From assembly GCA_910589375.1 (NCBI GenBank), contig CAJUTK010000002.1:195133-259132 (forward strand): a DNA stretch of 64,000 bases, given 5' to 3'. Shown piece by piece: positions 1,912-63,094 of this stretch; the first letter of the stretch is position 1, and each line of letters begins with the position of its first letter. Under the pieces are notes generated by a model that saw only the letters and a program-made list of their open reading frames with translations, had not been told where the DNA came from and searched no databases. The stretch is from an uncultured Bacilli bacterium (GTDB lineage: Bacteria; Bacillota_I; Bacilli_A; RF39; UBA660). Position numbers and translations under genes: made by a program.

Positions 1912-2118
1912 ATGCAAATATTATTAATTATTATATCCGTTCTCTTAATTGCCATAGTATTATTACAAAGTGGAAAAGCAGAGAGTGCTACTGATATTAT
2001 GAGTGGCAGCAACAGTGACTTATTTAGTAACCGTAAAGAACGTGGGGGAGAATTATTTATTACTCGTTTAACGTTTTGTTTGGGAGTTGCTTTCTTTATC
2101 ATTTGTATTATTATGTAA
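1912..2118 (+). CDS. secG: preprotein translocase subunit SecG
   Basis: 68 aa protein with two TM segments. Contains LLQSGKAE...LFSNRKERGGELFITRLT, which matches the conserved SecG core (LLQxGKG...RGL..L.R.T). GGAGG RBS upstream and a hairpin plus T-run terminator follow at 2119-2150. Confidence 0.7.
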   Translation: MQILLIIISVLLIAIVLLQSGKAESATDIMSGSNSDLFSNRKERGGELFITRLTFCLGVAFFIICIIM

Positions 2119-2197
2119 AACTAAGGAAAACTTAGTTTTTTTCTTTTTATCGTATAGAAAAATTAAAATCATGATATAATGAAATAGAGGTGGGGTT

Positions 2198-3472
2198 ATG
2201 AATCAAGTTTTGCCAGCTGATATTTTTGTTGTTGTAAATAAGACTGTTTTACAAGATGATAGAAAAATATTAGTAAGTTTATATGAACCACTCATAGGAG
2301 CTCTTGCTATCAATTTATATAATACGTTGTGGACTTATTTAGATCATCTAGAATTAATTTCAACAGAATATACGCATAATACACTTTTAAATACTATGAT
2401 GATTACAGTTCAAGAGATGATGGATGCTAGGTTAAAGTTAGAAGGAATAGGACTTTTAAAAACCTATGTGAAAAGAGGTAGTGTTAATAGTTTTATTTAT
2501 GAACTTTATTCTCCCATGAGTGCCAAAGAGTTTTTAAATAACCCTATATTAGGAACAGCGCTTTATAATGCACTAGGGCCAACAGAGTATGAAAGAAGAG
2601 TAGAATTCTTTAGAATACCATCAATTAATTTAAAAAACTATGAAGATGTTACAGCCAAATTTAGTGATATTTTTTCATGGACGAATTCTTCATTGAGAAA
2701 TATAGAAATCTACAATCTTAAAAATAAAGCAACGAGACCATTAGAAATTATTTCTAAAATTGATATTAATACGATATTAAGTTTAATACCAGAAGAAATG
2801 TTGAATCAAAGAAGTGTTACAAAAGAAGTTCGTTCCTTCCTAATAAAAATATCTTTTATATATAATTATGATAATGAAGCTATGGTAGAATTGATTAGAA
2901 ATTCTATTACAGATAAACATACAATTGATAAAGTAAAATTAAGAGAACTTGCAAGTAAATACTATCAGTTTGAGAATTTAGGAAAACTACCAAGTTTAAT
3001 TTATAAAAATCAGCCAGAATATTTGCGTTCTACAAAATCGGGAGTATCTAAAAAGATGCAACAGATTCATTTGTTTGAAACTACTAGCCCATATGATTTT
3101 ATTTGTAGTAAATATAAAACAGGAACTCCTACTAGTAGTGATTTAAATATTATTTCTTATTTATTAATAGATTTAGATTTAAAGCCAGGAGTTGTTAATG
3201 TTTTAATTGATTATGTATTAAAAATTAATAATAACAATCTTACAAAACGTTTTGTAGAAACTATTGCTGCACAGTGGAAAAAAAGTAATATAGAAACAGT
3301 AGAAGATGCAATGAATATTGCCGAGGAAGAGAATAAGAAAAGAAAATCTATTTCTAATAATAAAAGAGAGACAAAACAAGATAAAAAACCAGATTGGTTT
3401 CATCAAGATATAGAAGCAGACTTTGCCACAGCAGAAGAAATAGAAGAATTAGAAAAGATGTTAAAAGGATAG
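2198..3472 (+). CDS. dnaB: DnaB/DnaD-like replication initiation and membrane attachment protein (Bacillus-type DnaB)
   Basis: 424 aa, located immediately upstream of dnaI as in the B. subtilis dnaB-dnaI operon. Lysine-rich C-terminal tail. RBS GAGGTGGGG. Confidence 0.55.
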   Translation: MNQVLPADIFVVVNKTVLQDDRKILVSLYEPLIGALAINLYNTLWTYLDHLELISTEYTHNTLLNTMMITVQEMMDARLKLEGIGLLKTYVKRGSVNSFIYELYSPMSAKEFLNNPILGTALYNALGPTEYERRVEFFRIPSINLKNYEDVTAKFSDIFSWTNSSLRNIEIYNLKNKATRPLEIISKIDINTILSLIPEEMLNQRSVTKEVRSFLIKISFIYNYDNEAMVELIRNSITDKHTIDKVKLRELASKYYQFENLGKLPSLIYKNQPEYLRSTKSGVSKKMQQIHLFETTSPYDFICSKYKTGTPTSSDLNIISYLLIDLDLKPGVVNVLIDYVLKINNNNLTKRFVETIAAQWKKSNIETVEDAMNIAEEENKKRKSISNNKRETKQDKKPDWFHQDIEADFATAEEIEELEKMLKG

Positions 3473-8040: not shown

Positions 8041-8115
8041 ACTACTACTTTAGTAGTTTTTTTCTTGCTTTCCTTTTAGAAAATGTGCTATAGTAATAAA
8101 TATAGGAGCATGACT

Positions 8116-11100
8116 ATGGCAGAAAAATTAAAGAAAGTTAATTTTGAAAAGTTATTAAAGCAATGGGGAGCTAACTATGCTTACCTTCTTTCAAATGAAA
8201 TGAATGCAGAAATAATAGTTGAAATGAAGTCCTCACTGCCTGATATTTCAAAATATCCGTTATCGGAAGAGTGGGAAAAAGAAGCAAAGAAAATTACATT
8301 ACAGTTAATCAAGAATAAAATTTGTGAGAAAATATCTGAGAATATCGACTTTTTAGATATCTATTTTTCAAAAAAGTGGGTTAAGAATAAAACAGATGAT
8401 GAAAACTTAAAAGCTTTTGCAACTTTTTTACAGAAAATAGGTTATTCACTCAGTATTGATGAGTGTATTAGTCTATTTGAAAAATATCCAACTTTTTTAA
8501 ATATAGTCAAAACGATTGTTAATTGTAAAACGAAAAAAATTTTGTTAGATAAATTAGAGGATATTCCGGATTATCAACTACTTTCTTCTATTATAGGAGC
8601 TTATTTAACATATGCTAATATAGAAATAGACTTAGATGAGGATTTAGAGGATGAGTATAAAATAGATGGAAATGTTGATTTTTTCAAACTAGATCCGATA
8701 AAACAATATTTGTATGAAATAGGTCAGGTTCCTCTTTTAAGCATTGCTGAGGAAAAAGAACTGTTTACTTTATTAAAGTCAACTAATAGTGATAAAGTAA
8801 GACATAGAATTTCAGAGGCTAACCTTAGACTGGTAGTTAATATTGCGAAACGTTATGTAGGAAGAGGAATGCTCTTTCTAGATTTAATTCAAGAAGGAAA
8901 TTTAGGTCTCATGAAAGCGATTGATAAGTTTGAGGTAGAAAAAGGATATAAGTTTTCAACTTACGCGACTTGGTGGATTCGTCAGGCGATTACAAGAGCA
9001 ATTGCTGATCAAGCTCGTACAATTCGTATACCTGTTCATATGGTTGAACGAATTAACAAAGTAGTTCAAGCCGAAAGAAGACTTACAATGGAATTAGGGC
9101 GCGAGCCAAAATATGAGGAATTAGCTGAGGAAGTAGGTTTTACAGTATCTCAAATTCGGGATATTAAAGAAAATTATTTGGAACCAGTAAGTCTTCAAAC
9201 TTTAATTGGCGATGAAGATGATTCGGAACTAGAGGATTTTGTAGCAGCAGAAGGCGATGATTATGCAGTAGTTAGTAATAATGAGTTGCATGATAGACTG
9301 ATGGATGTATTAAGTAGAATTCCGGAAAGGGAAGCACAAGTTTTAATTCTTCGCTTTGGTGTAGAAGATGGTAGAACCAGAACCTTAGAAGAAGTTGGAA
9401 AAAAGTTTGGTGTTACTAGGGAAAGAATTAGGCAAATAGAAGCAAAAGCATTAAGAAGATTATTTAAAAGGAGAGATGCGAAAGCTTTAAAAGTGTTTAT
9501 AGGCTTAGAAGAAGAACCAGTAGTGCCTTTACCATTAGAAAATAATCATAAACCAGGAGCTGTTTCTAAAGGAAAGCCTAGATTAACAACTTCTCCAAGA
9601 TACGTGCCATCAAACATATCATCAAAACAGGCATTAGAACCAAAGCCTATACAGGAACCATTAGAGGCGGTAAAGAATTTATTCTATTATTTAAATAATT
9701 ATTCACCTAAATTAGTAGTAAAAGAACTTCGTACATTAGACCAATATTGTCAAGAAGTATTGGTAAAAATGTTTGGAAAAAACTTTGATATGAATTTGCA
9801 GGAAAGAGCAGATGAAAATGATGTTTATTTATTTCAAAAATTTATTCTTCCAGAGTTAAAGGAAAAGTTAATGATACCTTCTGTAAAAGCAGCTCAAAGA
9901 GATACAGTTGCTGCAACTCCAATAAAAAAAGAAGGAGAAGCACTAAAAAGTTTGGAAGGTAGAATCGTAACACCAGCAGAGATTTCTGCTGCCACTTCTT
10001 TAGAAATACATGAACGTGAAGAAGTAATAGATACAAATACTATACCAGAGGAAGAAGCAATTCCAAAATTAAAACCACAAGAACAAATAGGGGGAAAAGA
10101 GGAGGAAATTATGAAAGAACAAAATAATTCAGCAAAAGGAAAAAGAAGGGATTTAACAACACCATATACTTGTTTTGAAAAAGATTCTAAGGATTGGGTT
10201 GACTATGCATTATATACATTAAATCAAGAAGATCAAGAACTTTGCGCACTTCGTTGGGGAAGTGAAAAAAGACCATTTACGAAATCAGAGCAGAATAGAT
10301 TTATTCGTACTGTTTTAGGAAGAATGGAAAAAACATTAGAAAAATTACGCTCTGGTGAAATTACTATAGTAGGTTCTTACACAGTATCTGCACAAGGAGA
10401 TGAGAAGAAAGAAGAATCTCAACCTCCTATACCAGAACAAAGTGGAAATAAAGGGGAAGAACTTGCTCCTAAGAAGGAAAGAAGAAAGAGAAGAGATTTA
10501 ACAACTGTATATACATGTTTTAATGGAGAACCAAAGGAAACAGTTGACTTTGCGATTTCTCTTTTAACTCCAGAAGAAAAAGCTACATTAGATATACGTT
10601 GGGGAGAAAATAGTAGACCTTTCGCTTCTACTAGAGAGAAAAATAAATTTTTCCAAGTAGTATTACCAAAATTAGAAGGTTATGTAGCAGATATTAGAGA
10701 AGGAAGAATAACAGTTGATGAAAGATTCCCTGATGAAGTGATTTCTCCTAGCACAGCTCCTTTAGTAGGTAAGCAAGTAGCTGTAGATGATGTTGCTCTT
10801 TCTGGATCAACGCATCCTTATCAATATACCGAAGGTGATACTTTCAGTGCAATGCCAGTATTGTCAGAAGGGTTTACAAAAGAAGATTATGAAGCTTTAC
10901 GTGCTTATATTGCAAGGCCTGAATATCAAGATGCAGTAAAAACATTACCACTTGAGGATTGTGTTGTAGCAGCTCTTTCATTAACAATGGTAGGAAATAA
11001 AAAAGTATCATTTGGTGTTTTGGCAGAACTTCTTGGTATGGATGAAAAAGAAGTAGAACAAATTGCAAAAAGAGGTTTATTTGCATTAAAAGAAAAATTT

Positions 11101-11160
11101 GATAATAGTGTAGATAAAGCAGCAGAACCATATGTTAAAGAACTTGGGGGAATGCAATAA
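8116..11160 (+). CDS. sigA: primary-type sigma-70 factor (SigA-like core, residues about 200-470) with a long N-terminal region and a 550 aa C-terminal extension
   Basis: The region 2 to 4 sequence is near-identical to B. subtilis SigA: [30 protein letters not shown] and [36 protein letters not shown]. The extension contains two internal repeats, RRDLTT(P/V)YTCF...(L/I)RWG(S/E)...RPF. AGGAG RBS lies 7 nt before the ATG at 8116. Confidence 0.85.
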
Positions 11161-12053
11161 TGGGAAAGAAAAAGAAGGAAGAAAAAGTAGAAAGATTTCC
11201 TATTGATGCAGAAGTTGCTAATTTCGAGTCTAAGTATACTAAAATTATGCCTTTTATAGATGCTTCTTTAGTAAGAAGATTATATGAGTCATCTATTCCA
11301 AATGATATTAGGGAAAACGGTGTTAGTTGGAATATTACTGCTAATTTTACAGTAGAAAAGAAATTCTTTTTAGCGATTAAAGAATTAATTTTAGAAGGAG
11401 ATATTGATTTAGAGATTGCTATTATAGATCAGTTTATGTCTATCGGCCGAATGCTAATTAAAAAGTTAGGCTATACAGGAGATGATATTGATAATAAAGT
11501 AGAGACAGCAATTACTTTAGCAATTGAAAATTATCCAGGACAGGATGGTTTTAAAAGTACTTTATTAAAAGAATTGAAAGTTATTGTAAAAGGTAAAAAA
11601 GAAGAGTCTTTATCTCATATACCAACAACTTCAATAGAAACAGAGAAAAATGTTCCTTCCTTAGAAGGAATAGAATCAGAAAGCTTTGAAGTAAGAGAAC
11701 CTTTAGAGCAAGCAGAGCCTTCCAACCAGACATTGCAAACCCAAGAAATAGTACTTCCAGCTGATGGTAAGTTAAGAGTACCTACTTCTTTGGATCAATT
11801 ACTTTTCAATATTGATATATTAAGAGTTTCCCCATTAGAAGATCAAGACTATATTAAATTTTTAACGCTAAAATATGGATATTATGGTGAACAATTCTAT
11901 TCTTTAGGTGAAATTAGTGAAATTCTATCTTTACCAAAAGAAAAGGTAAGAGAATATTATTTACAATCTTTACAATTCGTGAAAGACTGGTTTGGATTAC
12001 AATTAGAACGTTATTATACTTATTTAAAAAAGAACACAAAAGAGAATGATTAA
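11160..12053 (+). CDS. hypothetical protein with a sigma region-4-like C-terminus, translationally coupled to the sigma gene
   Basis: Its ATG overlaps the sigA stop (TAATG). The C-terminal LKYGYYGEQFYSLGEISEILSLPKEKVREYYLQSLQF resembles the sigma-70 region 4 HTH. Confidence 0.55.
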   Translation: MGKKKKEEKVERFPIDAEVANFESKYTKIMPFIDASLVRRLYESSIPNDIRENGVSWNITANFTVEKKFFLAIKELILEGDIDLEIAIIDQFMSIGRMLIKKLGYTGDDIDNKVETAITLAIENYPGQDGFKSTLLKELKVIVKGKKEESLSHIPTTSIETEKNVPSLEGIESESFEVREPLEQAEPSNQTLQTQEIVLPADGKLRVPTSLDQLLFNIDILRVSPLEDQDYIKFLTLKYGYYGEQFYSLGEISEILSLPKEKVREYYLQSLQFVKDWFGLQLERYYTYLKKNTKEND

Positions 12054-12065
12054 TCATTCTCTTTT
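12038..12065. terminator. perfect 13 bp inverted repeat (AAAAGAGAATGAT-TA-ATCATTCTCTTTT), bidirectional terminator spanning both convergent stop codons
   Basis: Seen directly in the sequence. The + gene's TAA (12051-12053) and the - gene's TAA (12050-12052) both lie in the palindrome centre. Confidence 0.6.
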
Positions 12066-14029
12066 ATTGTAGGAATTAAATCTTCTAAATTTTCTTGTTT
12101 ATAAGTAGGCTCTGTTCCTTTTATGTAATAGAACATAGTAGCATTTTTATCTTTTTCTTTCGCTATATTACCAGAAATAGGGTTGACTAAGGTACCAACT
12201 ACGTTTTCAGGAATAGAATACCAGTTAACTTCTTTATCCTTTAAATAATTTTCGGCAATATCTCTCCACATATATCGCAAATCTTTTCCATTTTTTACTT
12301 CTGTAGGAGTACTATCATCATTTCCACTCCAAATTCCTATTACAATATTAGCGTTATACCCAAATATTAAGTGATCATTATCAGTAGTTCCTGTTTTAAT
12401 AGCGTACTTATGAGTTAAAGTAGAGGTAATATCATAGCAGGTAGGATAATTGTAATCAATAAAATGGTAGTTATAAGTACTTGTTAATGCCTCATTTAAT
12501 ATATAAGTAAGACTACTATTTAAAGTAGGTTCTTTAGTATTTTTATTTTCATATAGTATATTTCCTTCCATGTCTTCTACTTTAGCAATTAGTTTTCCTT
12601 CTACTCGATATCCTAAGTTAGCAAAAGTTGCATAGGCCTGCACCATTTCAAAAAGAGTGATTTCTCCACTTCCAAGAGCAAGAGAAGGGACTGCCTGCAA
12701 ATCAGATTTAATACCTAATCTATTTGCCATTTCTACTAACGTTTTCTCACCTAGAAATAAGTGTGTTTTAACAGCATAAATATTATCACTGTAGGCAAGG
12801 GCAGCAGCCATTGTAATAGCTTTTCCGCCATATTTATTATTATAATTAGAAGGACTATAAGTTTTATTTTCAGAGAAAACGAAGGTTGTTTTCTCACTTG
12901 TAAAAGTAGTAGATTCTGTAAATCCATTTTCAAGAGCAGCATAATATAGAAATGGTTTCATAGTAGAACCGACTTGTCTTTTAGCATTGATAGCACGATT
13001 ATACTGGCTCGTTGAGTAGTTTCTTCCTCCAGTAAGAGCAATTACATGACCATTTTCTGGATCCATCATAATAGCAGATAACTGTATATCATCATCTTTA
13101 ATATTATCATCCATAGCTTTTTCTAAAATTGTTTGAGCATTTAAATCTAAGTATGTATATACTTTAAGACCTCCTGTTTCTAAAAAGGTCTTTGGTATTT
13201 CTTTTAAACTCTTTAATTCAGTCATAACAGCATCTTGATAATACATCAATGTCTTTAATTCATTTTCTTCCATTGTTCCATAGTAAGTAAGGCTACAGTT
13301 AATAGCATCATCCTTTTCTTCTTCTGAAATCATACTCTCTCGTACCATACTAGAAAGAACTAACGCTTGTCTTTCTTTTGCTTTTTCTTCATTTACAAGA
13401 GGGGAGTAATGAGAAGGAGATTTTGGAATACCTACTAAAATAGACGCTTCTGCAAGTGTTAAATCCTTAGCATGTTTATGAAAATAGTATTTACTAGCAT
13501 TTTCAATTCCATAAATTCCTCCATAATTGATAGTATTTAGATAAGCTTCCAAAATTTCATCTTTAGAATATTGGGTTTCAAGCTGTATGGTAAGCCATGC
13601 TTCTTTTATTTTTCGCTCCCACGTTTTATCGAATGTTAAAAAGAGATTTTTAGATAATTGTTGACTGATAGTAGAGGCACCTTGTTTTTTAGAGCCACTT
13701 TTTAAATTGATATAAAGGGACTTAGCAATTCTTAAATAGTCAAAGCCGCTATGTTTATAAAAATTTTTATCTTCTATTGCAATAGTAGCATCAATTACAA
13801 AAGGAGAGATATCATCTAATGATACCCAAGTGTCACTTAATCCTTCAACTAAATCACCATTTATATCATAAAAATAGAACTCATTAGCATTTTCTATTAC
13901 TAATTTAGTTCCATACTTTGCATAAAAATAAAGACCAAAGTAAAAAATAAAACCGAGGCCAATTATAAAAAGACTGATTTTGCATAGTCTTTTCCACCAT
14001 TTTTTCTTTCGTTTCATACCATCACTCAA
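12050..14029 (-). CDS. class A penicillin-binding protein (PBP1A-type transglycosylase/transpeptidase)
   Basis: N-terminal TM anchor. GT51 motifs (IEDKNFYKHSGFD, RIAKS). Transpeptidase STMKPF (SxxK). 659 aa. Confidence 0.85.
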   Translation of the reverse strand: MSDGMKRKKKWWKRLCKISLFIIGLGFIFYFGLYFYAKYGTKLVIENANEFYFYDINGDLVEGLSDTWVSLDDISPFVIDATIAIEDKNFYKHSGFDYLRIAKSLYINLKSGSKKQGASTISQQLSKNLFLTFDKTWERKIKEAWLTIQLETQYSKDEILEAYLNTINYGGIYGIENASKYYFHKHAKDLTLAEASILVGIPKSPSHYSPLVNEEKAKERQALVLSSMVRESMISEEEKDDAINCSLTYYGTMEENELKTLMYYQDAVMTELKSLKEIPKTFLETGGLKVYTYLDLNAQTILEKAMDDNIKDDDIQLSAIMMDPENGHVIALTGGRNYSTSQYNRAINAKRQVGSTMKPFLYYAALENGFTESTTFTSEKTTFVFSENKTYSPSNYNNKYGGKAITMAAALAYSDNIYAVKTHLFLGEKTLVEMANRLGIKSDLQAVPSLALGSGEITLFEMVQAYATFANLGYRVEGKLIAKVEDMEGNILYENKNTKEPTLNSSLTYILNEALTSTYNYHFIDYNYPTCYDITSTLTHKYAIKTGTTDNDHLIFGYNANIVIGIWSGNDDSTPTEVKNGKDLRYMWRDIAENYLKDKEVNWYSIPENVVGTLVNPISGNIAKEKDKNATMFYYIKGTEPTYKQENLEDLIPTIKEND

Positions 14030-36873: not shown

Positions 36874-39507
36874 ATGATGACAAAATATGTTTATTTGTTT
36901 ACCGAAGGTAATGCTGATATGAGAAACCTTCTTGGTGGTAAAGGTGCTAACTTAGCAGAAATGACAAATATTGGTCTACCAGTACCACAAGGTTTTACTA
37001 TCACAACTGAAGCATGTACTCAATATTATGAAGATGGTAGAGAAATTAATGATGAAATCCAATCTCAAATTAATGAGTATATCGGTAAGATGGAAAGTAT
37101 TACTGGAAAGAAGTTTGGAGATAAAGAAAATCCATTACTTGTTTCTGTAAGATCAGGAGCAAGAGCTTCTATGCCAGGTATGATGGATACTATTCTTAAT
37201 TTAGGTCTAAATGAAGAAGTAGTAAACGTTCTAGCTGAAAAATCAGGAAATGCTAGATGGGCTTGGGATTGCTACAGAAGATTTATTCAAATGTATTCTG
37301 ACGTAGTAATGGAAGTTGGAAAAAAATATTTTGAAGAGTTAATCGACAAAATGAAAGAAGCTAAAGGAGTTACACAAGACGTTGAACTTAACGCTGATGA
37401 CTTAAAAGAATTAGCAAACCAATTTAAGGCTGAATATAAAGAAAAAATTGGTGAAGACTTCCCAAGTGATCCAAAAGAACAATTAATGGGAGCTATCAAA
37501 GCTGTATTCCGTTCTTGGGATAATCCACGTGCTAATATCTATAGAAGAGATAACGACATTCCTTATTCTTGGGGAACTGCTGTTAACGTTCAATCTATGG
37601 CATTTGGTAACATGGGTGATGACTGTGGTACTGGTGTTGCATTTACTCGTGACCCAGCAACAGGAGCAAAAGGTTTATTTGGTGAATTCTTAACAAATGC
37701 ACAAGGAGAAGACGTAGTTGCAGGTGTTCGTACACCAATGCATATTACTGAAATGGAAACAAAATTCCCAGAAGCATTTAAAGAATTTAAGACTGTTTGT
37801 GAAACGTTAGAATCTCACTATAGAGATATGCAAGATATGGAATTTACTGTTGAACATGGTAAACTTTATATGTTACAAACAAGAAATGGTAAAAGAACAG
37901 CTCAAGCTGCTTTAAAAATTGCTTGTGATTTAGTAGATGAGGGAATGCGTACTGAAGAAGAAGCAGTACTTATGATTGATCCAAGAAACTTAGATACATT
38001 ATTACACCCTCAATTTGATGCTGCTGCATTAAAAGCTGCTAAACCAATCGGAAAAGGATTAGGAGCTAGTCCTGGTGCTGCTTGCGGTAAAGTTGTATTT
38101 ACTGCTGAAGAAGCTGAAAAACAAGGATTAGGTGGAGCAGGAGAAAAAGTTATTTTAGTTAGACTTGAAACTTCACCAGAAGATATCGGTGGTATGAAAG
38201 CTGCTCAAGGTATCTTAACAGTTCGTGGTGGAATGACATCACATGCTGCCGTAGTTGCTCGTGGTATGGGTTCTTGCTGTGTATCTGGATGTGGAGAAAT
38301 TGCCATGAACGAAGCTAAGAAAGAATTTACTTTAGCTGGAAAAACATATCATGAAGGAGATGTAATCTCTATTGATGGTACTACTGGTAATATCTATGAT
38401 GGAGCTATTCCTACTGTAGATGCTTCTATCGCTGGAGAATTTGGACGTGTTATGGCATGGGCTGACAAATATAGAAAATTAGGCGTTAGAACAAATGCTG
38501 ATAACCCAACAGATACTAAAAAAGCTATTGAATTAGGTGCTGAAGGTATTGGTCTTTGCCGTACAGAGCACATGTTCTTTGAAGAGGAAAGAATTCCTGC
38601 TATTAGAAAGATGATTTTAGCAGATACTGTAGAAGAAAGAGAAAAAGCATTAGATGCATTAATTCCATTCCAAAAAGGTGACTTTAAGGCAATGTATAAG
38701 GAATTAAAAGGTCTACCAATGACAGTTCGTTACTTAGACCCACCTCTACATGAATTCTTACCAAAAGAAGAAAAAGATATTGAAGCTTTAGCTAGTGAAA
38801 TGGGAGTTACTGTTGAACAACTAAAGCAAAAATGTGATGATTTACATGAGTTTAACCCAATGATGGGACATAGAGGTTGTCGTTTAGCAGTTACTTATCC
38901 AGAAATTGCTAAGATGCAAACAAGAGCGCTTATGGAAGCTGCTATTGAAGTAAAAGCAGAAGAAGGATACGATATCGTTCCTGAAATCATGATTCCATTA
39001 GTTGGAGAAGTAAAAGAACTTAAATATGTTAAAGATGTAGTAGTTGCTACTGCTGAAGAAGTTAAGAAAGAAAAGAATTCTGATATGGAATACCATATTG
39101 GTACTATGATTGAAATTCCAAGAGCTGCTTTAACAGCTGATGAAATTGCTAAAGAAGCTGAATTCTTCTCATTTGGAACAAATGACTTAACTCAAATGAC
39201 ATTTGGTTTCTCAAGAGATGATGCTGGTAAGTTCTTAAAATCTTACTATGAAACTAAGATTTATGAGCAAGATCCATTCGCAAGAATCGATCAAACTGGT
39301 GTAGGTTCTTTAGTTAAACTTGCAGTTGAAAAAGGTAAATCTACAAGACCAAATATTAAGCTTGGTATTTGTGGAGAGCATGGTGGAGATCCATCAAGTG
39401 TTGAATTCTGTCATAATATAGGATTAACATATGTTTCTTGTTCACCATTTAGAGTACCAATTGCACGTTTAGCTGCTGCTCAAGCTGCTATTAAAGAAAA
39501 TATGTAG
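36874..39507 (+). CDS. ppdK: pyruvate, phosphate dikinase
   Basis: N-terminus MMTKYVYLFTEGNADMRNLLGGKGANLAEM. Phospho-His motif GGMTSHAAVVARG. PEP-utilising C-terminal TIM barrel. AGGAGG RBS. Bidirectional hairpin terminator at 39508-39540. Confidence 0.95.
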   Translation: MMTKYVYLFTEGNADMRNLLGGKGANLAEMTNIGLPVPQGFTITTEACTQYYEDGREINDEIQSQINEYIGKMESITGKKFGDKENPLLVSVRSGARASMPGMMDTILNLGLNEEVVNVLAEKSGNARWAWDCYRRFIQMYSDVVMEVGKKYFEELIDKMKEAKGVTQDVELNADDLKELANQFKAEYKEKIGEDFPSDPKEQLMGAIKAVFRSWDNPRANIYRRDNDIPYSWGTAVNVQSMAFGNMGDDCGTGVAFTRDPATGAKGLFGEFLTNAQGEDVVAGVRTPMHITEMETKFPEAFKEFKTVCETLESHYRDMQDMEFTVEHGKLYMLQTRNGKRTAQAALKIACDLVDEGMRTEEEAVLMIDPRNLDTLLHPQFDAAALKAAKPIGKGLGASPGAACGKVVFTAEEAEKQGLGGAGEKVILVRLETSPEDIGGMKAAQGILTVRGGMTSHAAVVARGMGSCCVSGCGEIAMNEAKKEFTLAGKTYHEGDVISIDGTTGNIYDGAIPTVDASIAGEFGRVMAWADKYRKLGVRTNADNPTDTKKAIELGAEGIGLCRTEHMFFEEERIPAIRKMILADTVEEREKALDALIPFQKGDFKAMYKELKGLPMTVRYLDPPLHEFLPKEEKDIEALASEMGVTVEQLKQKCDDLHEFNPMMGHRGCRLAVTYPEIAKMQTRALMEAAIEVKAEEGYDIVPEIMIPLVGEVKELKYVKDVVVATAEEVKKEKNSDMEYHIGTMIEIPRAALTADEIAKEAEFFSFGTNDLTQMTFGFSRDDAGKFLKSYYETKIYEQDPFARIDQTGVGSLVKLAVEKGKSTRPNIKLGICGEHGGDPSSVEFCHNIGLTYVSCSPFRVPIARLAAAQAAIKENM

Positions 39508-56835: not shown

Positions 56836-58536
56836 ATGTTTGCAAATTTAGAATTGTTTTTACAAGAAAAAGAGGTATATAGGCAAAAGGTAGAAGAGAT
56901 AAAGGCTTCTGCTCAAAATCCAGAAGAGTTATCAAAACTATTAATAGAGGCAGAGGAACATTTCAAAGGAGAAGTACGTAAGTATCTTACTTCAGCTATT
57001 ACTGTAATTAATACGAATTTTGGTTGCCAATATTCAATTTATAAAGTAGGAAAAGACTTTGATGTTAATTTTCAAGTGGTAGAGACAAATGTTAGAAAAA
57101 CAAGATCTGAAGTAATCGCAGAAATGGAAGAATTTAAAAAACAAGCTGTTGGTATGGATTTAACTAATGAGCAAATTACGAAAATTAATTTGGCTATGGA
57201 AGTATTACTTACTTATAGTGATGATGCGACAGATAAAGTAGATGAGAATAAAGAAGCTTTTTTAAAGGAAGCTCAAGTAAAAGCCACTAGTATTATTGAA
57301 GCTCCAACAAGAGAAAATAATGCTTTTGAACCGGCTCCTAGTCAAGAGCCAAATTTTAATCCATATGCTAATCAGCCAATAGAAGTAGATAATGGCTTTA
57401 AAAATCCAGAATATGAGAAAAAGACTTTAGTTGATCCATTTGCAAGTATTTATGGAGGAGCGAATGTTTCTCCTAATGAAATACCAGAAGCTACTCCTGA
57501 TTTCGGTGTTCCTAATCCTCCAACTAATATGAATATGAATAATTCTTTAGGAGATGCTATGTCTATCTTTGGGCCAGGAATTACAACTAGTACTTCTAAT
57601 CAAAGTAATACTATGAGTAATCCACAACAGAATGTATCTCAAATTCCTGTAAACAATAATTATAATAATGGGTTAAATCCAATGAGTAATAATGTTAATG
57701 CTAATGTTATGCCTACTAATGCAGTGAATGCTCCCAATAATTTTAACAATGTTACTCCAACTGGGGCGATAGCAAACGCAGCACCAGAGAAAACTAATGA
57801 AACTGAAGATTCTTTAGTATTAGTAGATGAGTTAAATGTTCCAAAGGAAAGTGCTTGCATTGTATCAAAGCTATTAAAAGGTATTCTTCGATTACCAATT
57901 ACGACTTTACTTTTCTTAGGAATAATTTTGCTAATATTCTGGGGAATGAACAAGGCTAATTGGATGGGAGAGATAGAAGAACTATTAGGGGATTATTTGA
58001 TTTATGCAGAATTAGCATTATCTCTTTTCATTGCTTTAATAGCATCCTCAACAGTAATAGATTCAATTGCTTCTAAGACAAAGTATATTAGTAAACATGC
58101 CATGGCTTCTCTTACTATTTTTTCTGGAGTTACCTATGGACTTACTTTATTGATGCCATATTTAATGGAAAATGTTTTAGTAGATAAGCTAGATGCAGAT
58201 ATTATTTTTGAAGTAGCTATTTACTTTGCTTATTATTTAGCTTTATCCTTCTTTGTTGGAACGTTTATGTGGTTGTTGTCTTTTATGCGCACTAAGAAAG
58301 AATATTTAAAGAAAAGACTCAATATTTTTGAAATTCTTGGAGCTTTAGCAAATATTTATACGCTAATTATTCCAGCTGTCATAGTAGGATGCTCTTGGTG
58401 CCAAGTAACCGTTGTTGGAGAAAAAGTAGCTTTTTTATACGATTATGAAAATTTTCAATGGATTGTTATGATTGCAAGTTTTGTATTAGGTCTTATTATG
58501 ATTTTATTTAGTAAATTGGAAGAGAAAAAGTTATAG
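56836..58536 (+). CDS. membrane protein with soluble N-domain, N/Q/P-rich low-complexity linker and C-terminal multi-TM domain
   Basis: 566 aa. Linker NNNYNNGLNPMSNNVNANV. At least 5 predicted TM helices C-terminally. Confidence 0.5.
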   Translation: MFANLELFLQEKEVYRQKVEEIKASAQNPEELSKLLIEAEEHFKGEVRKYLTSAITVINTNFGCQYSIYKVGKDFDVNFQVVETNVRKTRSEVIAEMEEFKKQAVGMDLTNEQITKINLAMEVLLTYSDDATDKVDENKEAFLKEAQVKATSIIEAPTRENNAFEPAPSQEPNFNPYANQPIEVDNGFKNPEYEKKTLVDPFASIYGGANVSPNEIPEATPDFGVPNPPTNMNMNNSLGDAMSIFGPGITTSTSNQSNTMSNPQQNVSQIPVNNNYNNGLNPMSNNVNANVMPTNAVNAPNNFNNVTPTGAIANAAPEKTNETEDSLVLVDELNVPKESACIVSKLLKGILRLPITTLLFLGIILLIFWGMNKANWMGEIEELLGDYLIYAELALSLFIALIASSTVIDSIASKTKYISKHAMASLTIFSGVTYGLTLLMPYLMENVLVDKLDADIIFEVAIYFAYYLALSFFVGTFMWLLSFMRTKKEYLKKRLNIFEILGALANIYTLIIPAVIVGCSWCQVTVVGEKVAFLYDYENFQWIVMIASFVLGLIMILFSKLEEKKL

Positions 58537-58545
58537 GGGGATTGT

Positions 58546-59832
58546 ATGATTGTTGTTATTACCAATAAATTAAAAGAGATTATTGATAGTAGTAGACTTA
58601 AAGAAGCAAATTGTAAGTATGCAGTTGGCTTTTATACAGTAAATGATTGTATACAATCATTATCTTCTTTAGATATAGATTATTTAGTTATAGATATTAC
58701 TGCTTTTAAGGATGCTTTTGAAATTAGTTCTTGGAAAAGAGTGAAAGATTTTATTGATCCTTCTAAAACTGTTATTTTGTTAGAAGAGGCAAAATCTTAT
58801 TCTAATGTTGGTTTTCTATCTATGCTAATTACAATGGGTTTCTACAATTTTACTAAAACAGGTGAAGGAATAATAAGGCTAATGGAAAGGCCTAATTCTT
58901 ATCAAGAGGTGGCAAAGTATCAAAAGATGGCAATGAATTTAGAAGATAGAAAAGAAGAAGAGGAAGAGCGCTTTAATGATTATCAAAGGAAACTAGGAGA
59001 AAACCAAGATATGATGCGAGATTACCTAGAAAGATATCAAAAAGGTGAAGTTTCTTTTAAAAGAAAAAACGATGTTTTTAAGTATCAATTAAAAGTAGGT
59101 TTATTAGCACTCCCAATTTTGACTATTGCTAGTGTATTTTTCATTTATCTATTTCAAATTTTTATTTCTAATATGGTTCCATTAGAAGATAGCGTCGGAG
59201 AATATCTATATACAGAACTAGCCCATACTGGTTTTACTCCATTAACAATTATAGGAATTTTAATTATTACGGTTTTCTTTTCTATTTACTATACTTTCTT
59301 GAATGCAAAAATTAAAAGAATGCAGATGACAAGATCAAAGTTTATTATTATTCCATTTGCTATTTTCTGTGTACTTGTATTTGGAGAATATTATTTAGTT
59401 GGTGTTTTAGAAAAATTCTATGAGTTTATAAAGATTATTCCAATAGATGATAAGATGTATCTTTGCCAGGATTTATACTGGCTAAGTAGGTATGTAGCAA
59501 CAGCAGCAATATTCTTATTCTATATTAGTACTTTCATTGATAATTCAAGAACTTTAAAGTTTGAAAAGGATTTAGGTCAGAAATTAACTTGGTTAGAAAA
59601 ATTATGGGTAATTGATATGATTTTATTGCTAATGATTCCTCTTGCTTGTCAGTTATCTTTAGCACTTCCAGAAAGTAGTTCATTATCTAGCTTTTTTAGT
59701 AGTATTTCTGATAAGTCTTTGATAATGATGGTAATTGCTGGTATTGAATTTATTTTAACAATATTAATTTTATTGCAACCTAAGTTTGTAAAAGAAAAAG
59801 AATATACAATATTAAAAGAAGAAGATTTATAG
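58546..59832 (+). CDS. membrane protein (cytoplasmic N-domain about 190 aa plus multi-TM C-domain)
   Basis: GGGGGG RBS. 428 aa. Confidence 0.5.
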   Translation: MIVVITNKLKEIIDSSRLKEANCKYAVGFYTVNDCIQSLSSLDIDYLVIDITAFKDAFEISSWKRVKDFIDPSKTVILLEEAKSYSNVGFLSMLITMGFYNFTKTGEGIIRLMERPNSYQEVAKYQKMAMNLEDRKEEEEERFNDYQRKLGENQDMMRDYLERYQKGEVSFKRKNDVFKYQLKVGLLALPILTIASVFFIYLFQIFISNMVPLEDSVGEYLYTELAHTGFTPLTIIGILIITVFFSIYYTFLNAKIKRMQMTRSKFIIIPFAIFCVLVFGEYYLVGVLEKFYEFIKIIPIDDKMYLCQDLYWLSRYVATAAIFLFYISTFIDNSRTLKFEKDLGQKLTWLEKLWVIDMILLLMIPLACQLSLALPESSSLSSFFSSISDKSLIMMVIAGIEFILTILILLQPKFVKEKEYTILKEEDL

Positions 59833-59843
59833 ATCTTCTTCTT

Positions 59844-60461
59844 TTATATTTTACGATATAAACCAATTGCTTTTCCTAATACAAAAACATTTTCTAATAT
59901 AATTGGACTCATTGTATCATTTTCTGGCTGTAAACGAAAATGATTATTTTCTTTATAAAACGTTTTTAAAGTTACTTCATTTTCTTCTGTCATTGCTACA
60001 ACAATTTCACCATTTCTAGCTGTATTTTTTCTTTCTACAATAATAATATCTCCATCATGAATTCCTGCATTAATCATACTTTCACCGTTAACTTTTAAAG
60101 TGAAAACTTCTTTATCTTTAGGAATAAGATAGGCAGGTAAAGTAAAGTACTCATCAGGGTTTTGAATTGCCTCAATAGGGCTTCCTGCTGTAATTTTTCC
60201 TAATAATGGGACATCAACAACGCTCTCGTTTTTAGGAATAAACTCATTATCTACCATTAATTCAATGGTTCTATTTTTATTAGAGCCTTTTTTGATGTAA
60301 CCTTTATCAGCTAGACCATCTAAGTGAGCTTGCACAGTAGCAGGAGAAGAGACATTTAATGCAGTAGCAATTTCTCTAACTGTAGGTGGATATCCATGTG
60401 ATACAATATACTCTTTTACAAACTGTAAAGTATCTTCCTGTCTTTTTGTTAATTTATCCAT
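59844..60461 (-). CDS. lexA: LexA repressor
   Basis: N-terminal wHTH (LTKRQEDTLQFVKEYIVSHGYPPTVREIA). S24 peptidase domain with Ala-Gly cleavage site and Ser/Lys dyad (GESM, K). Confidence 0.9.
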   Translation of the reverse strand: MDKLTKRQEDTLQFVKEYIVSHGYPPTVREIATALNVSSPATVQAHLDGLADKGYIKKGSNKNRTIELMVDNEFIPKNESVVDVPLLGKITAGSPIEAIQNPDEYFTLPAYLIPKDKEVFTLKVNGESMINAGIHDGDIIIVERKNTARNGEIVVAMTEENEVTLKTFYKENNHFRLQPENDTMSPIILENVFVLGKAIGLYRKI

Positions 60462-60544
60462 ATTTCCTCCTTATATACTATAACAATTTTATCATAGTAA
60501 AATGTAAATGTCAAACAGATGTTTGCTTAAATGCTCAAAAAGCG

Positions 60545-60573
60545 TTGACACGAATATTTGTTCGTGATAGAAT
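60545..60573 (+). promoter_or_regulatory. sigma-A-type promoter (TTGACA-17-TAGAAT) with embedded LexA/Cheo box CGAATATTTGTTCG (60551-60564)
   Basis: 12 of 14 positions match the Bacillus consensus CGAACATATGTTCG. A second weaker palindrome AAACAGATGTTT at 60512-60525 overlaps the lexA -35. Confidence 0.7.
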
Positions 60574-60597
60574 GAATACAGTTGAAGGAGTGATAGT

Positions 60598-60753
60598 ATG
60601 GAATTAGTGAGAGATTTTGTAAAGGAGAACTTAATAATGTTAGTGTTTGGAATCATTTTATTTGGAATTGTTTTCTTAGGAAGTTTGGAAAATATAAAAT
60701 TAGAGAATAATAGGATAATAAAAGAGTTTTCAATAGAGGAAACTCTTTATTAA
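60598..60753 (+). CDS. small single-TM protein divergent from lexA, candidate SOS-induced cell-division inhibitor (YneA/SosA-like by position)
   Basis: 51 aa: MELVRDFVKENLIMLVFGIILFGIVFLGSLENIKLENNRIIKEFSIEETLY. GAAGGAG RBS 8 nt upstream. LexA box in its promoter. Below the 60 aa cutoff of the ORF track. Confidence 0.55.
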   Translation: MELVRDFVKENLIMLVFGIILFGIVFLGSLENIKLENNRIIKEFSIEETLY

Positions 60754-60799
60754 TGAAAAATAGTTTGATATAATGTTTTATAGAATAGGGGATGTTAAA

Positions 60800-62785
60800 A
60801 TGAATGATTTTGAAATTATATCTAATATTAAAGGATTAGGAATTGATATGATTCATAATGCAAAGTCAGGGCACCCTGGTATTGTTCTAGGAGCTGCTCC
60901 TATTTTATATACATTATATAAAAACCATATGAATATTAATACTAGTGATAGTAATTGGGTGAATAGGGATCGATTTGTTATGTCTGCAGGACATGGTTCT
61001 GCACTATTGTATGCTACTTTATTTATGACAGGATATGCTCTTACAATTGATGATTTAAAATCATTTAGACAAATTGGATCTAAAACACCTGGGCATCCAG
61101 AAAAGGGAGTAACACCAGGAGTGGATTGTTCAACTGGGCCATTAGGACAAGGCTTTGCTAATGCTGTAGGAATGGCTTTAGGAGAGAAAATCTTAAAGGA
61201 GAGATATCGTCTTAATCCTGCTAAAAGTTTAGTGGACTATAAAGTATATGCTTTAGTAGGGGATGGAGATCTTATGGAAGGCATTTCTTACGAGGCTGCC
61301 TCTTTAGCTGGAAATTTAAAACTAAATAATTTAATTGTATTATATGATTCAAATGGAATTAGTTTAGATGGTCCTACTTCTAAAACATTTACTGAAAATG
61401 TAAGAGCACGTTTTGAAGCTTTGGGATGGAATACCATTTTTGTAAAAGAGGGAGATAAGGTATCTGAAATTGATAAAGCAATAGAAAAAGCAAAGAGGTC
61501 TAGTGCACCAACTTTAATAGAAGTAAAAACTGTAATTGGTAAGGATTCTTTACTAGAGGGTAAATGCAGTATTCATGGTAAAGATTTAGAGGAAGACGAT
61601 ATTAGTCAGTTGAAATCTAAATTAGGCCTTCCTACTATAGAGACATTTTATGTAAATACAGAAGCATGTTCTAAATTTAGGGGATTTATTGCTAATCGTG
61701 TCAATAAGAAGTATATGGAATGGTCTAATACCTATCAGGAATATGTATCAAAAATAGGAGATGGAAATAAAACAGAAGCAAATTATTTATTTCAAAATGT
61801 ATTTAATTATAATCTTTTTGATTTAAAATTTGATTTTAAAGTTCATACTAAGCAAGCTCTTAGAGATACTAATATGATATTTATGCAAGCATTGGGGAAA
61901 AATATTAAAACCTTTGTAGGTGGTAGTGCAGATTTGGGCAGTACTACTAAAACTTATGTTTCAGAGTTTGCGGATATTACTTCTGAAAATTTTTTAGGAA
62001 ACAATATTTGGTTTGGAGTACGTGAGCATGCTATGGGAGCTATTTTAAACGGTTTAGCTTTAGTAAATTTAAAACCTTTTGGTTCTACTTTCTTAAGCTT
62101 TTCTGACTATTTAAAGCCAGCTATGAGAATGTCTGCTTTAATGAATTTACCAGTTACTTATATTTATACACATGATTCTATTTCAGTAGGACCGGATGGA
62201 CCTACACATCAGCCAATTGAGCACTTAGCGATGTTACGTTCTATTCCAGGAATGAAGGTCTATAGACCTGCAGATGCAAAAGAATTACTTGGTTGTTGGC
62301 AGAGAATATTAAATTCTAATTTTAATCCTAGTTCTTTGGTACTAGCTAGAAATGAAGTTGAGGTAATGGAAGAATCTAAGGCGGAAGACGCTATGAATGG
62401 TGGTTATGTTCTTCGCCAAGAAACTTCACCACTAAAATTAATTTTAGTAGCGACAGGTAGTGAAGTTCATGTTGCTAAAAATTTAGCACTAGAGTTTTCT
62501 AGAATGGGAGAGAATGGAATTCGGGTTGTAAGTCTTCCCTGTATAGAGAATTTCTTAGAGACAGAAAAGCAGTATCAAGAAAATGTTCTTCCTTCTAATG
62601 TTTTAAAAATAGCAATAGAAGCGGGTTCTCCATTTGGCTGGCACAGAATTATTTCAAATCCTAAGTATGTAATTGGTTTGGAGAGTTTTGGAATGAGTGG
62701 AAGTAAAGATCAAGTTTTGGATGCTATGAATTTTAGTTATGAAAAAATTAAACAGAGAGTTTTAGGACTATTGCGTGAGCTTTAG
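60800..62785 (+). CDS. tkt: transketolase
   Basis: TPP-binding GHPG...GDGDLMEG and a transketolase C-terminal domain. Same position relative to lexA as in B. subtilis (lexA...tkt...yneF). Confidence 0.9.
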   Translation: MNDFEIISNIKGLGIDMIHNAKSGHPGIVLGAAPILYTLYKNHMNINTSDSNWVNRDRFVMSAGHGSALLYATLFMTGYALTIDDLKSFRQIGSKTPGHPEKGVTPGVDCSTGPLGQGFANAVGMALGEKILKERYRLNPAKSLVDYKVYALVGDGDLMEGISYEAASLAGNLKLNNLIVLYDSNGISLDGPTSKTFTENVRARFEALGWNTIFVKEGDKVSEIDKAIEKAKRSSAPTLIEVKTVIGKDSLLEGKCSIHGKDLEEDDISQLKSKLGLPTIETFYVNTEACSKFRGFIANRVNKKYMEWSNTYQEYVSKIGDGNKTEANYLFQNVFNYNLFDLKFDFKVHTKQALRDTNMIFMQALGKNIKTFVGGSADLGSTTKTYVSEFADITSENFLGNNIWFGVREHAMGAILNGLALVNLKPFGSTFLSFSDYLKPAMRMSALMNLPVTYIYTHDSISVGPDGPTHQPIEHLAMLRSIPGMKVYRPADAKELLGCWQRILNSNFNPSSLVLARNEVEVMEESKAEDAMNGGYVLRQETSPLKLILVATGSEVHVAKNLALEFSRMGENGIRVVSLPCIENFLETEKQYQENVLPSNVLKIAIEAGSPFGWHRIISNPKYVIGLESFGMSGSKDQVLDAMNFSYEKIKQRVLGLLREL

Positions 62786-62875: not shown

Positions 62876-63094
62876 ATGAGTCTTTTAGTTAGATTAGGAT
62901 ATGTCTTAATAGGTCTTGTTATAGGCGCTATTATTGGATTTTTTCTAGCACGTAAATATATGCAAAAATATATGAAAAAAAATCCACCAATTAATGAACA
63001 GATGATTCGTACTATGATGATGCAAATGGGAAGAACTCCAAGTCAAAAACAAGTAAATCAAATGATGAAATCAATGGCTAAGTATATGGACTAG
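62876..63094 (+). CDS. yneF: UPF0154/YneF-like small membrane protein
   Basis: 72 aa. Single TM ([19 protein letters not shown]). Met/Gln-rich tail. Synteny with tkt. Confidence 0.65.

Follow-up and report, generated by a model that had tools for sequence, protein, structure and literature searches.

The gene beside lexA encodes a single-pass division inhibitor in Bacillus, Listeria, Staphylococcus, Mycobacterium, and Corynebacterium (PMC6851548). These Gram-positive SOS inhibitors of division each have one membrane helix and a C-terminus outside the cell, with little homology among them (PMC6851548). In this study, we asked whether a 51-codon open reading frame (ORF) that lies divergent from lexA in a 64,000-nucleotide stretch of DNA from an uncultured Bacilli bacterium (the window) is a gene, whether it is controlled by LexA, and what its product may do. 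The ORF is almost certainly a real membrane protein gene linked to a LexA box. We propose, with a probability of about 0.6, that it encodes a LexA-repressed, small single-pass membrane protein that acts as an SOS cell-division inhibitor. This function is suggested by the position and architecture of the gene, in analogy to the known inhibitors.

Promoters, operators, and start of the small gene

The lexA gene is located at 59844..60461 on the minus strand and encodes an SOS repressor of 205 aa (Pfam LexA_DNA_bind, 2e-22; Peptidase_S24, 4e-35). The protein has the Ala-Gly cleavage site in ITAGSP (residues 92-93), the serine in GESM, and the lysine in TLKTF. The predicted lexA promoter (60486..60514, minus strand; scan score 11/12) consists of a -35 element, TTGACA (60514..60509), a 17-nt spacer, and a TG-extended -10 element, TAAAAT, ending at 60486. 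LexA box 1, CAAACAGATGTTTG (GTTTGACA on the lexA strand), lies at 60512..60525 and overlaps this -35 element, presumably for autoregulation of lexA. In nearly all of the 80 related loci described below, a CAAAC-N4-GTTYG box lies at a distance of 41-59 nt from the start of lexA. On the other side of lexA, two plus-strand ORFs with long hydrophobic stretches and no Pfam match (56836..58536, 566 aa; 58546..59832, 428 aa) converge on the gene at a long, AT-rich, bidirectional terminator-like hairpin (59813-59846).

The start codons of lexA and the small ORF are 136 nt apart, and two divergent promoters fill that spacer. The predicted promoter of the small gene (60545..60573, plus strand; 11/12) has the -35 element TTGACA at 60545-60550, a 17-nt spacer, and the -10 element TAGAAT at 60568-60573, preceded by TG at 60565-60566. 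LexA box 2, the Cheo-type operator CGAATATTTGTTCG, lies at 60551..60564, where it abuts the -35 element and occupies the whole promoter spacer. The operator within a TTGACA-17-TAGAAT promoter, on which an earlier sequence-only reading of this DNA was built, is therefore present. It differs at one position from the Bacillota LexA consensus CGAACN4GTTCG and is the sole match with at most one mismatch in the 64 kb window. When up to two mismatches were allowed, the only other matches in the window were at 38716 and 50874, which is the level expected by chance. The composite TTGACA+CGAAN5GTTCG occurred once in the window, compared to an expectation of 0.02. Repression by occlusion classically relies on an operator placed between the -35 and -10 elements. 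Since box 2 fills the promoter spacer, bound LexA should shut out RNA polymerase. LexA control of the small gene is thus well supported as a prediction from this layout.

The small ORF (60598..60753, plus strand) is preceded by a Shine-Dalgarno sequence, GAAGGAG, at 60584..60590, 7 nt before the ATG at 60598. It encodes the 51-aa protein MELVRDFVKENLIMLVFGIILFGIVFLGSLENIKLENNRIIKEFSIEETLY, with an N-terminal segment (residues 1-11), one membrane helix (about 12-30), and a tail (31-51). The ribosome-binding site and the single hydrophobic helix were both part of the sequence-only reading and were recovered here. The predicted 5' leader of the mRNA is only about 18-25 nt long, and its Shine-Dalgarno sequence is strong and accessible. 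The starts of the orthologous ORFs have Shine-Dalgarno cores of 4-6 nt, located 5-12 nt upstream. We also considered Met14 as an alternative start (ATG at 60637, preceded by AAGGAG). This start was rejected; the internal Shine-Dalgarno-like sequence is lost in the related locus L001. Moreover, codons 1-12 of the window and L001 differ by four synonymous and no non-synonymous changes, which indicates that translation starts at 60598 and not at Met14. The gene had been described as unannotated. This holds in that it is unnamed in the public protein collection, but an identical 51-aa product has already been called there as a gene. Some relatives of the protein have been deposited as well, and every named family member is called a 'hypothetical protein'.

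Conservation of the small gene beside lexA

A search with LexA as the probe gave 80 related loci, all from uncultured gut Bacilli, of which 79 were usable. Relatives that carry a name (Candidatus Coprosoma, Coprovivens, and Faecenecus) are members of the GTDB order RF39, with the families CAG-822, CAG-1000, and CAG-611 (PMC8035907). An ORF was counted when it started with ATG, had at least 40 codons for amino acids, and lay divergent from lexA at 101-340 nt upstream. By this definition, the ORF was present in 66 of the 79 usable lexA loci, compared to 2.2 ± 1.4 in shuffled sequence, and the same definition applied to the reverse strand gave one ORF. A membrane helix was predicted in 64 of the 66 ORFs (0.4 expected). 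The ORF, its ribosome-binding site, the promoter, and the LexA box were conserved jointly in 68 of 81 lexA loci, with the window counted. The register of the module, TTGACA followed by CGAACAATTGTTCG (the 14-nt box consensus) and then by TGnTAnnAT, was identical in 62 of these 68 ORF-bearing loci, and a sense promoter scoring at least 10/12 was found upstream of the ORF in 65 of the 68 related loci. The second LexA box is missing in loci without the ORF.

Several loci differ in their arrangement. The distance between box 1 and box 2 is bimodal across the ORF-bearing loci: it measures 28-29 bp in 45 of them and 38-39 bp in another 12, the window included. The two modes differ by one helical turn, a possible sign of a constraint on the phasing of the two operators or of the divergent promoters. 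In L038 (2021-2866, minus strand), L047 (799-1644, minus strand), and L067, an ORF of 266-281 aa with no known family replaces the small gene divergent from lexA, and the second LexA box is absent. In L023 and L028, the SOS promoter is followed by an extra ORF of 62-75 aa (MEYYTINDIQILTGY...), with no Pfam match, and then by the small ORF; the extra ORF, on the divergent strand about 100-330 nt upstream of lexA, makes this a two-gene unit.

The pattern of substitutions was examined in 25 ortholog pairs. The dN/dS ratio was 0.09-0.68 in the 24 pairs for which it could be computed, and the differences at the three codon positions were distributed as 306:188:513. By region, dN/dS was 0.17 in the N-terminal segment, 0.19 in the membrane helix, and 0.40 in the tail. 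The protein nevertheless changes rapidly compared to its neighbor: between the window and L001, LexA is 97% identical while the small protein is only about 57% identical, and its tail is fast-evolving. A hidden Markov model (HMM) built without the proteins of the window, L001, and L002 ranked those three first among 306 small ORFs, although weakly (E = 2e-4, 15 bits). Because this HMM link between the window sub-clade and the remaining family is weak, the argument is carried by positional orthology. The sequence-only reading had named conservation of the operator without the ORF as evidence against its proposal. In the related genomes, the ORF itself was conserved and under purifying selection. 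These results provide good support for the view that the ORF is a real, protein-coding gene, as judged from its pattern of sequence change.

The small gene also kept its position when the search was started from the protein. Reverse look-ups of three family members (P0007, P0023, and P0014) all led to genes divergent from lexA. Divergent adjacency, a feature of the Gram-positive lexA-adjacent inhibitors, was thus found in the window, in 66 related loci, and in three reverse look-ups. The LexA operator in the promoter, another feature of this class, was found at the level of the DNA sequence. In contrast to lexA, the gene downstream of the small ORF varies and may be polA, tkt-sirA-UPF0154 (yneF), a glycosyltransferase gene, or others. 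As the small gene stays by lexA while the downstream gene changes, the unit is tied to lexA and not to tkt. About 0.9-1.1 kb of inserted DNA moves the small ORF away from lexA in L031 and L080, where the ORF retains its own promoter with TTGACA and the LexA box. The insertion in L031 contains a 274-aa ORF (2023-2847, minus strand) without a Pfam match. Taken by their arrangement, the promoter, the operator, and the small gene appear to form one unit linked to lexA.

In the window, the small gene is followed by tkt (transketolase; 60800..62785, plus strand; Pfam Transketolase_N, 5e-113) and, downstream of tkt, by the UPF0154 gene yneF (62876..63094). Homologues of the transketolase start with MND..., and the true start of tkt is at 60800 rather than at the start of the longer ORF at 60773. 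A candidate extended -10 element for tkt, TGATATAAT, lies at 60766..60774 (plus strand) in the 46-nt gap between the two genes (60754-60799), and a TGnTAnnAT element occurs in this gap in most loci with tkt downstream. No intrinsic terminator was found between the small gene and tkt in the window. A terminator-like hairpin follows the small ORF in only 14 of the 68 loci, and the window has none. With no terminator before it and an extended -10 element of its own, tkt may be transcribed both by read-through during the SOS response and from its own promoter. We regard tkt as a conserved downstream neighbor in part of the clade, which gives context but lies outside the module.

In about 20 loci, polA follows the small ORF by 14-63 nt. 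These loci belong to one RF39 sub-clade, in which polA (5'-3' exonuclease and DNA_pol_A) comes directly after the small ORF and the gap mostly has no -10-like element or terminator (L044, L046, L048, L050-L052, L056-L060, L062, L064, L069, L070, and L073; L081-L083, 3226-5838). The short gap without these elements suggests a LexA-controlled operon of the small ORF and polA.

Architecture and relatives of the small protein

Members of the small protein family are 34-58 aa long (median 47), with an N-terminus of about 8 residues, a membrane helix of 20, and a tail of 20. The N-terminal segment is net positive in 61 of 68 members, and the content of Lys and Arg per residue is 0.35 in this segment and 0.13 in the tail. 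The tails of the family are polar, and their mean charge is slightly negative. By the positive-inside rule, an N-in/C-out topology is predicted across the family. The prediction is weak for the window protein itself: its N-terminal segment has a net charge of -1, so that its topology rests on the family trend. The single helix of the window protein is clear: a stretch of 17 residues has a hydropathy of 2.98, and the AlphaFold2 model is one long helix, confident at residues 11-30 (pLDDT 90-93) and of low confidence in the tail. Within sub-clades, the tail carries conserved motifs such as R-I/V-E-x-L-D/E (e.g., R-I-E-R-L-D) immediately beyond the membrane and F-R-N-T-N-x-S-V-S toward the C-terminus.

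Searches of domain and structure collections assigned no family. A Pfam scan of the window protein gave no match, LysM included, at E up to 0.1, and the precomputed annotation of 33 homologues contained no Pfam domain. An NCBIfam scan of 55 members with E up to 10 gave scattered chance matches and no YneA model. Profile searches of the family against PHROGs and PADLOC gave nothing meaningful, and a profile search of the PDB returned only generic single-pass helices, such as KCNE1 and ErbB4. Rfam matches in 60300-61000 were sub-threshold and at the level of chance. The sequence-only reading had expected orthology of position if not of sequence, and this was borne out, as the gene is divergent from lexA and its product matches neither YneA nor any other family model.

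A search with the single sequence found only four close relatives. With a profile, 93 clusters were recovered from 1.84 billion representatives at E <= 0.001. At 50% identity, the family comprises at least 93 clusters, and as far as seen it is confined to uncultured Bacilli of the RF39 type. Except for one spurious protein of 638 aa, the matches are 45-78 aa long, and none of the 93 representative clusters has the length of a LysM protein. The longer matches that were inspected (62-78 aa) are N-terminally over-extended calls of the same small protein family and not SosA. In P0093, P0103, P0104, and P0107, prefixes such as 'LTQTSVRYK' are the translated DNA of the -35 element and the LexA box. 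The gene calls run through the operator, which inflates the apparent lengths to 62-78 aa.

Candidate functions of the small protein

As the gene belongs to no described sequence family, we compared its product with known SOS proteins. In Bacillus subtilis and Listeria, YneA shares the neighborhood in which lexA is divergent from the inhibitor gene and tkt, sirA/yneE, and yneF follow. It also shares the control by a Cheo box, the single N-in helix, and the extracytoplasmic C-terminus, the topology being predicted in the RF39 protein. However, the RF39 protein has no LysM domain, its tail is too short for one, and no NCBIfam model matched it. The absence of LysM and of a model match indicates that the small protein is not a member of the YneA family. 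SosA of Staphylococcus aureus has 77 aa and no LysM domain, and its staphylococcal homologues are 25-60% identical (PMC6851548). Compared by this description, SosA resembles the RF39 protein in its divergence from lexA, its N-terminal single helix, its short C-terminal part without LysM, and its fast evolution, as well as in the control by LexA and the extracellular C-terminus that are predicted for the RF39 protein, whereas the RF39 family is shorter (median 47 aa, with a tail of about 20).

SidA of Caulobacter crescentus, also compared by its description, is a minimal membrane-anchored SOS-induced inhibitor, as the RF39 protein would be. It comes from the unrelated lineage of the Alphaproteobacteria, which has a different LexA motif. 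SidA is not known to be lexA-adjacent and is even shorter. Its example indicates that a protein of about 51 aa can suffice. SidA acts on late division proteins rather than on FtsZ (PMC6851548). The best reading of these comparisons is that the RF39 proteins form a new sequence family inside the known class of YneA, SosA, DivS, and ChiZ, with SosA compared by its published description.

We weighed this reading against three others. It is very improbable that the ORF yields no functional protein, whether it arose by chance in AT-rich intergenic DNA or serves only as a leader for the regulation of tkt. Its very small size, the lack of a database family, and the lack of a terminator before tkt in the window would suit such an origin. 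However, a chance ORF would be expected in 2.2 loci and not in 66 of 79. The dN/dS values lie well under 1, third-position changes are in excess, and codons 1-12 of the window and L001 differ only synonymously, as in a translated protein. The tkt gene has an extended -10 element of its own, and a role as a leader peptide or upstream ORF for tkt was rejected because the ORF stays beside lexA in loci that lack tkt. A toxin of the TisB/DinQ type, SOS-induced and membrane-active, which would depolarize the membrane after damage and lead to dormancy instead of targeting the divisome, is unlikely, although it would share much with the RF39 protein. The TisB/IstR-1-type toxins of E. coli are likewise small hydrophobic peptides with a single helix under a LexA box, and no sequence family assignment speaks against such a toxin. 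Messenger RNAs of the tisB type, however, have long, structured leaders, in contrast to the short leader with its open, strong Shine-Dalgarno sequence found here. An antisense promoter within or after the ORF was found in 9 of 68 loci, compared to 12.2 ± 3.0 by chance in shuffled sequence. A type I toxin with an antisense RNA was rejected since no conserved antisense promoter was found in the 68 loci and there was no Rfam match. The tail of the RF39 protein is also under purifying selection (dN/dS 0.40) and keeps its sub-clade motifs; a selected extracytoplasmic tail with conserved motifs argues for a specific partner. Finally, the gene is fixed beside lexA, and this strict location is a hallmark of the division-inhibitor class (PMC6851548).

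A LexA-regulated membrane protein with another SOS role, for instance as a modulator of a transporter, protease, or wall hydrolase or as an anchor or regulator of a repair factor, is a doubtful but more serious alternative. Division inhibition is assigned to the RF39 protein by analogy, which leaves room for such a role. The protein has no LysM or other recognizable effector domain, the small gene is apparently co-transcribed with polA in one sub-clade (about 20 loci), and a terminator-like hairpin after the ORF is uncommon (14/68). Against this, the downstream gene varies while the small gene keeps to lexA, so that no single partner gene is implied. In addition, every characterized lexA-divergent, single-pass Gram-positive protein named in PMC6851548 is a division inhibitor.

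For an SOS division inhibitor, the following mechanism can be proposed. LexA binding, topology, and induction by damage are predicted from the architecture of the locus, while division inhibition, the target, and the turnover are suggested by analogy. In the resting state, a LexA dimer on CGAATATTTGTTCG between -35 and -10 would block RNA polymerase, and LexA on box 1 would cover the -35 element of lexA's own promoter. After DNA damage, RecA-stimulated self-cleavage of LexA would free the promoter of the small gene. The short-leader mRNA with its strong ribosome-binding site would then give the 51-aa protein, which would insert in the membrane with its N-terminus inside and a tail of roughly 20 residues outside. 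By analogy with YneA, SosA, and SidA, septal peptidoglycan synthesis would be transiently blocked. Most likely, the membrane helix would dock on the FtsW/PBP septal synthase, with the short tail interfering on the outer side. Renewed repression by LexA and removal of the protein by an extracytoplasmic protease would then lift the block.

YneA docks on TM7 of FtsW via its membrane helix, and other SOS inhibitors have been predicted to target FtsW as well (PMC13396833). The membrane helix of YneA alone localizes but does not inhibit, and the LysM domain is required (PMC13396833). As YneA needs LysM to inhibit, the 20-residue tail of the RF39 protein would have to act differently. RF39 has been predicted to have a thin peptidoglycan wall (PMC10868615), and a class A PBP is encoded in the window at 12050..14029. 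The PBP and the predicted thin wall together make a division target plausible. The window also encodes a sigma-70 homologue (8083..11160, plus strand) with regions 1.2-4 at residues 204-460; neither its 565-residue C-terminal extension nor its N-terminal part of roughly 200 residues had a significant Pfam match.

Among the top-ranked papers on RF39 combined with SOS or LexA, a literature search listed nothing relevant. A function predicted from position beside lexA will not surprise a specialist. The value of the present finding lies in the order-wide conservation in an uncultured gut lineage, in the very regular operator-promoter module, and in the minimal size of the protein. The regular promoter, TTGACA-LexA box-TGnTAnnAT, provides a clean operator model for predicting the SOS regulon of RF39. 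The proposal would also give a name-worthy function to tiny 'hypothetical' proteins of RF39, a common uncultured lineage of the human and animal gut, and would extend the rule that the gene divergent from lexA is an SOS division brake to genome-reduced relatives of mycoplasmas. There is about an even chance that these proteins are an unnamed family of minimal SOS checkpoint proteins across RF39, which block septal wall synthesis with a helix and a 20-residue tail. If this is true, thin-walled, genome-reduced gut Bacilli would possess a natural minimal inhibitor of an FtsW-type synthase, and an inhibitor of 47 aa that lacks LysM would offer a compact natural probe of the ways in which SEDS-type septal synthases can be shut off.
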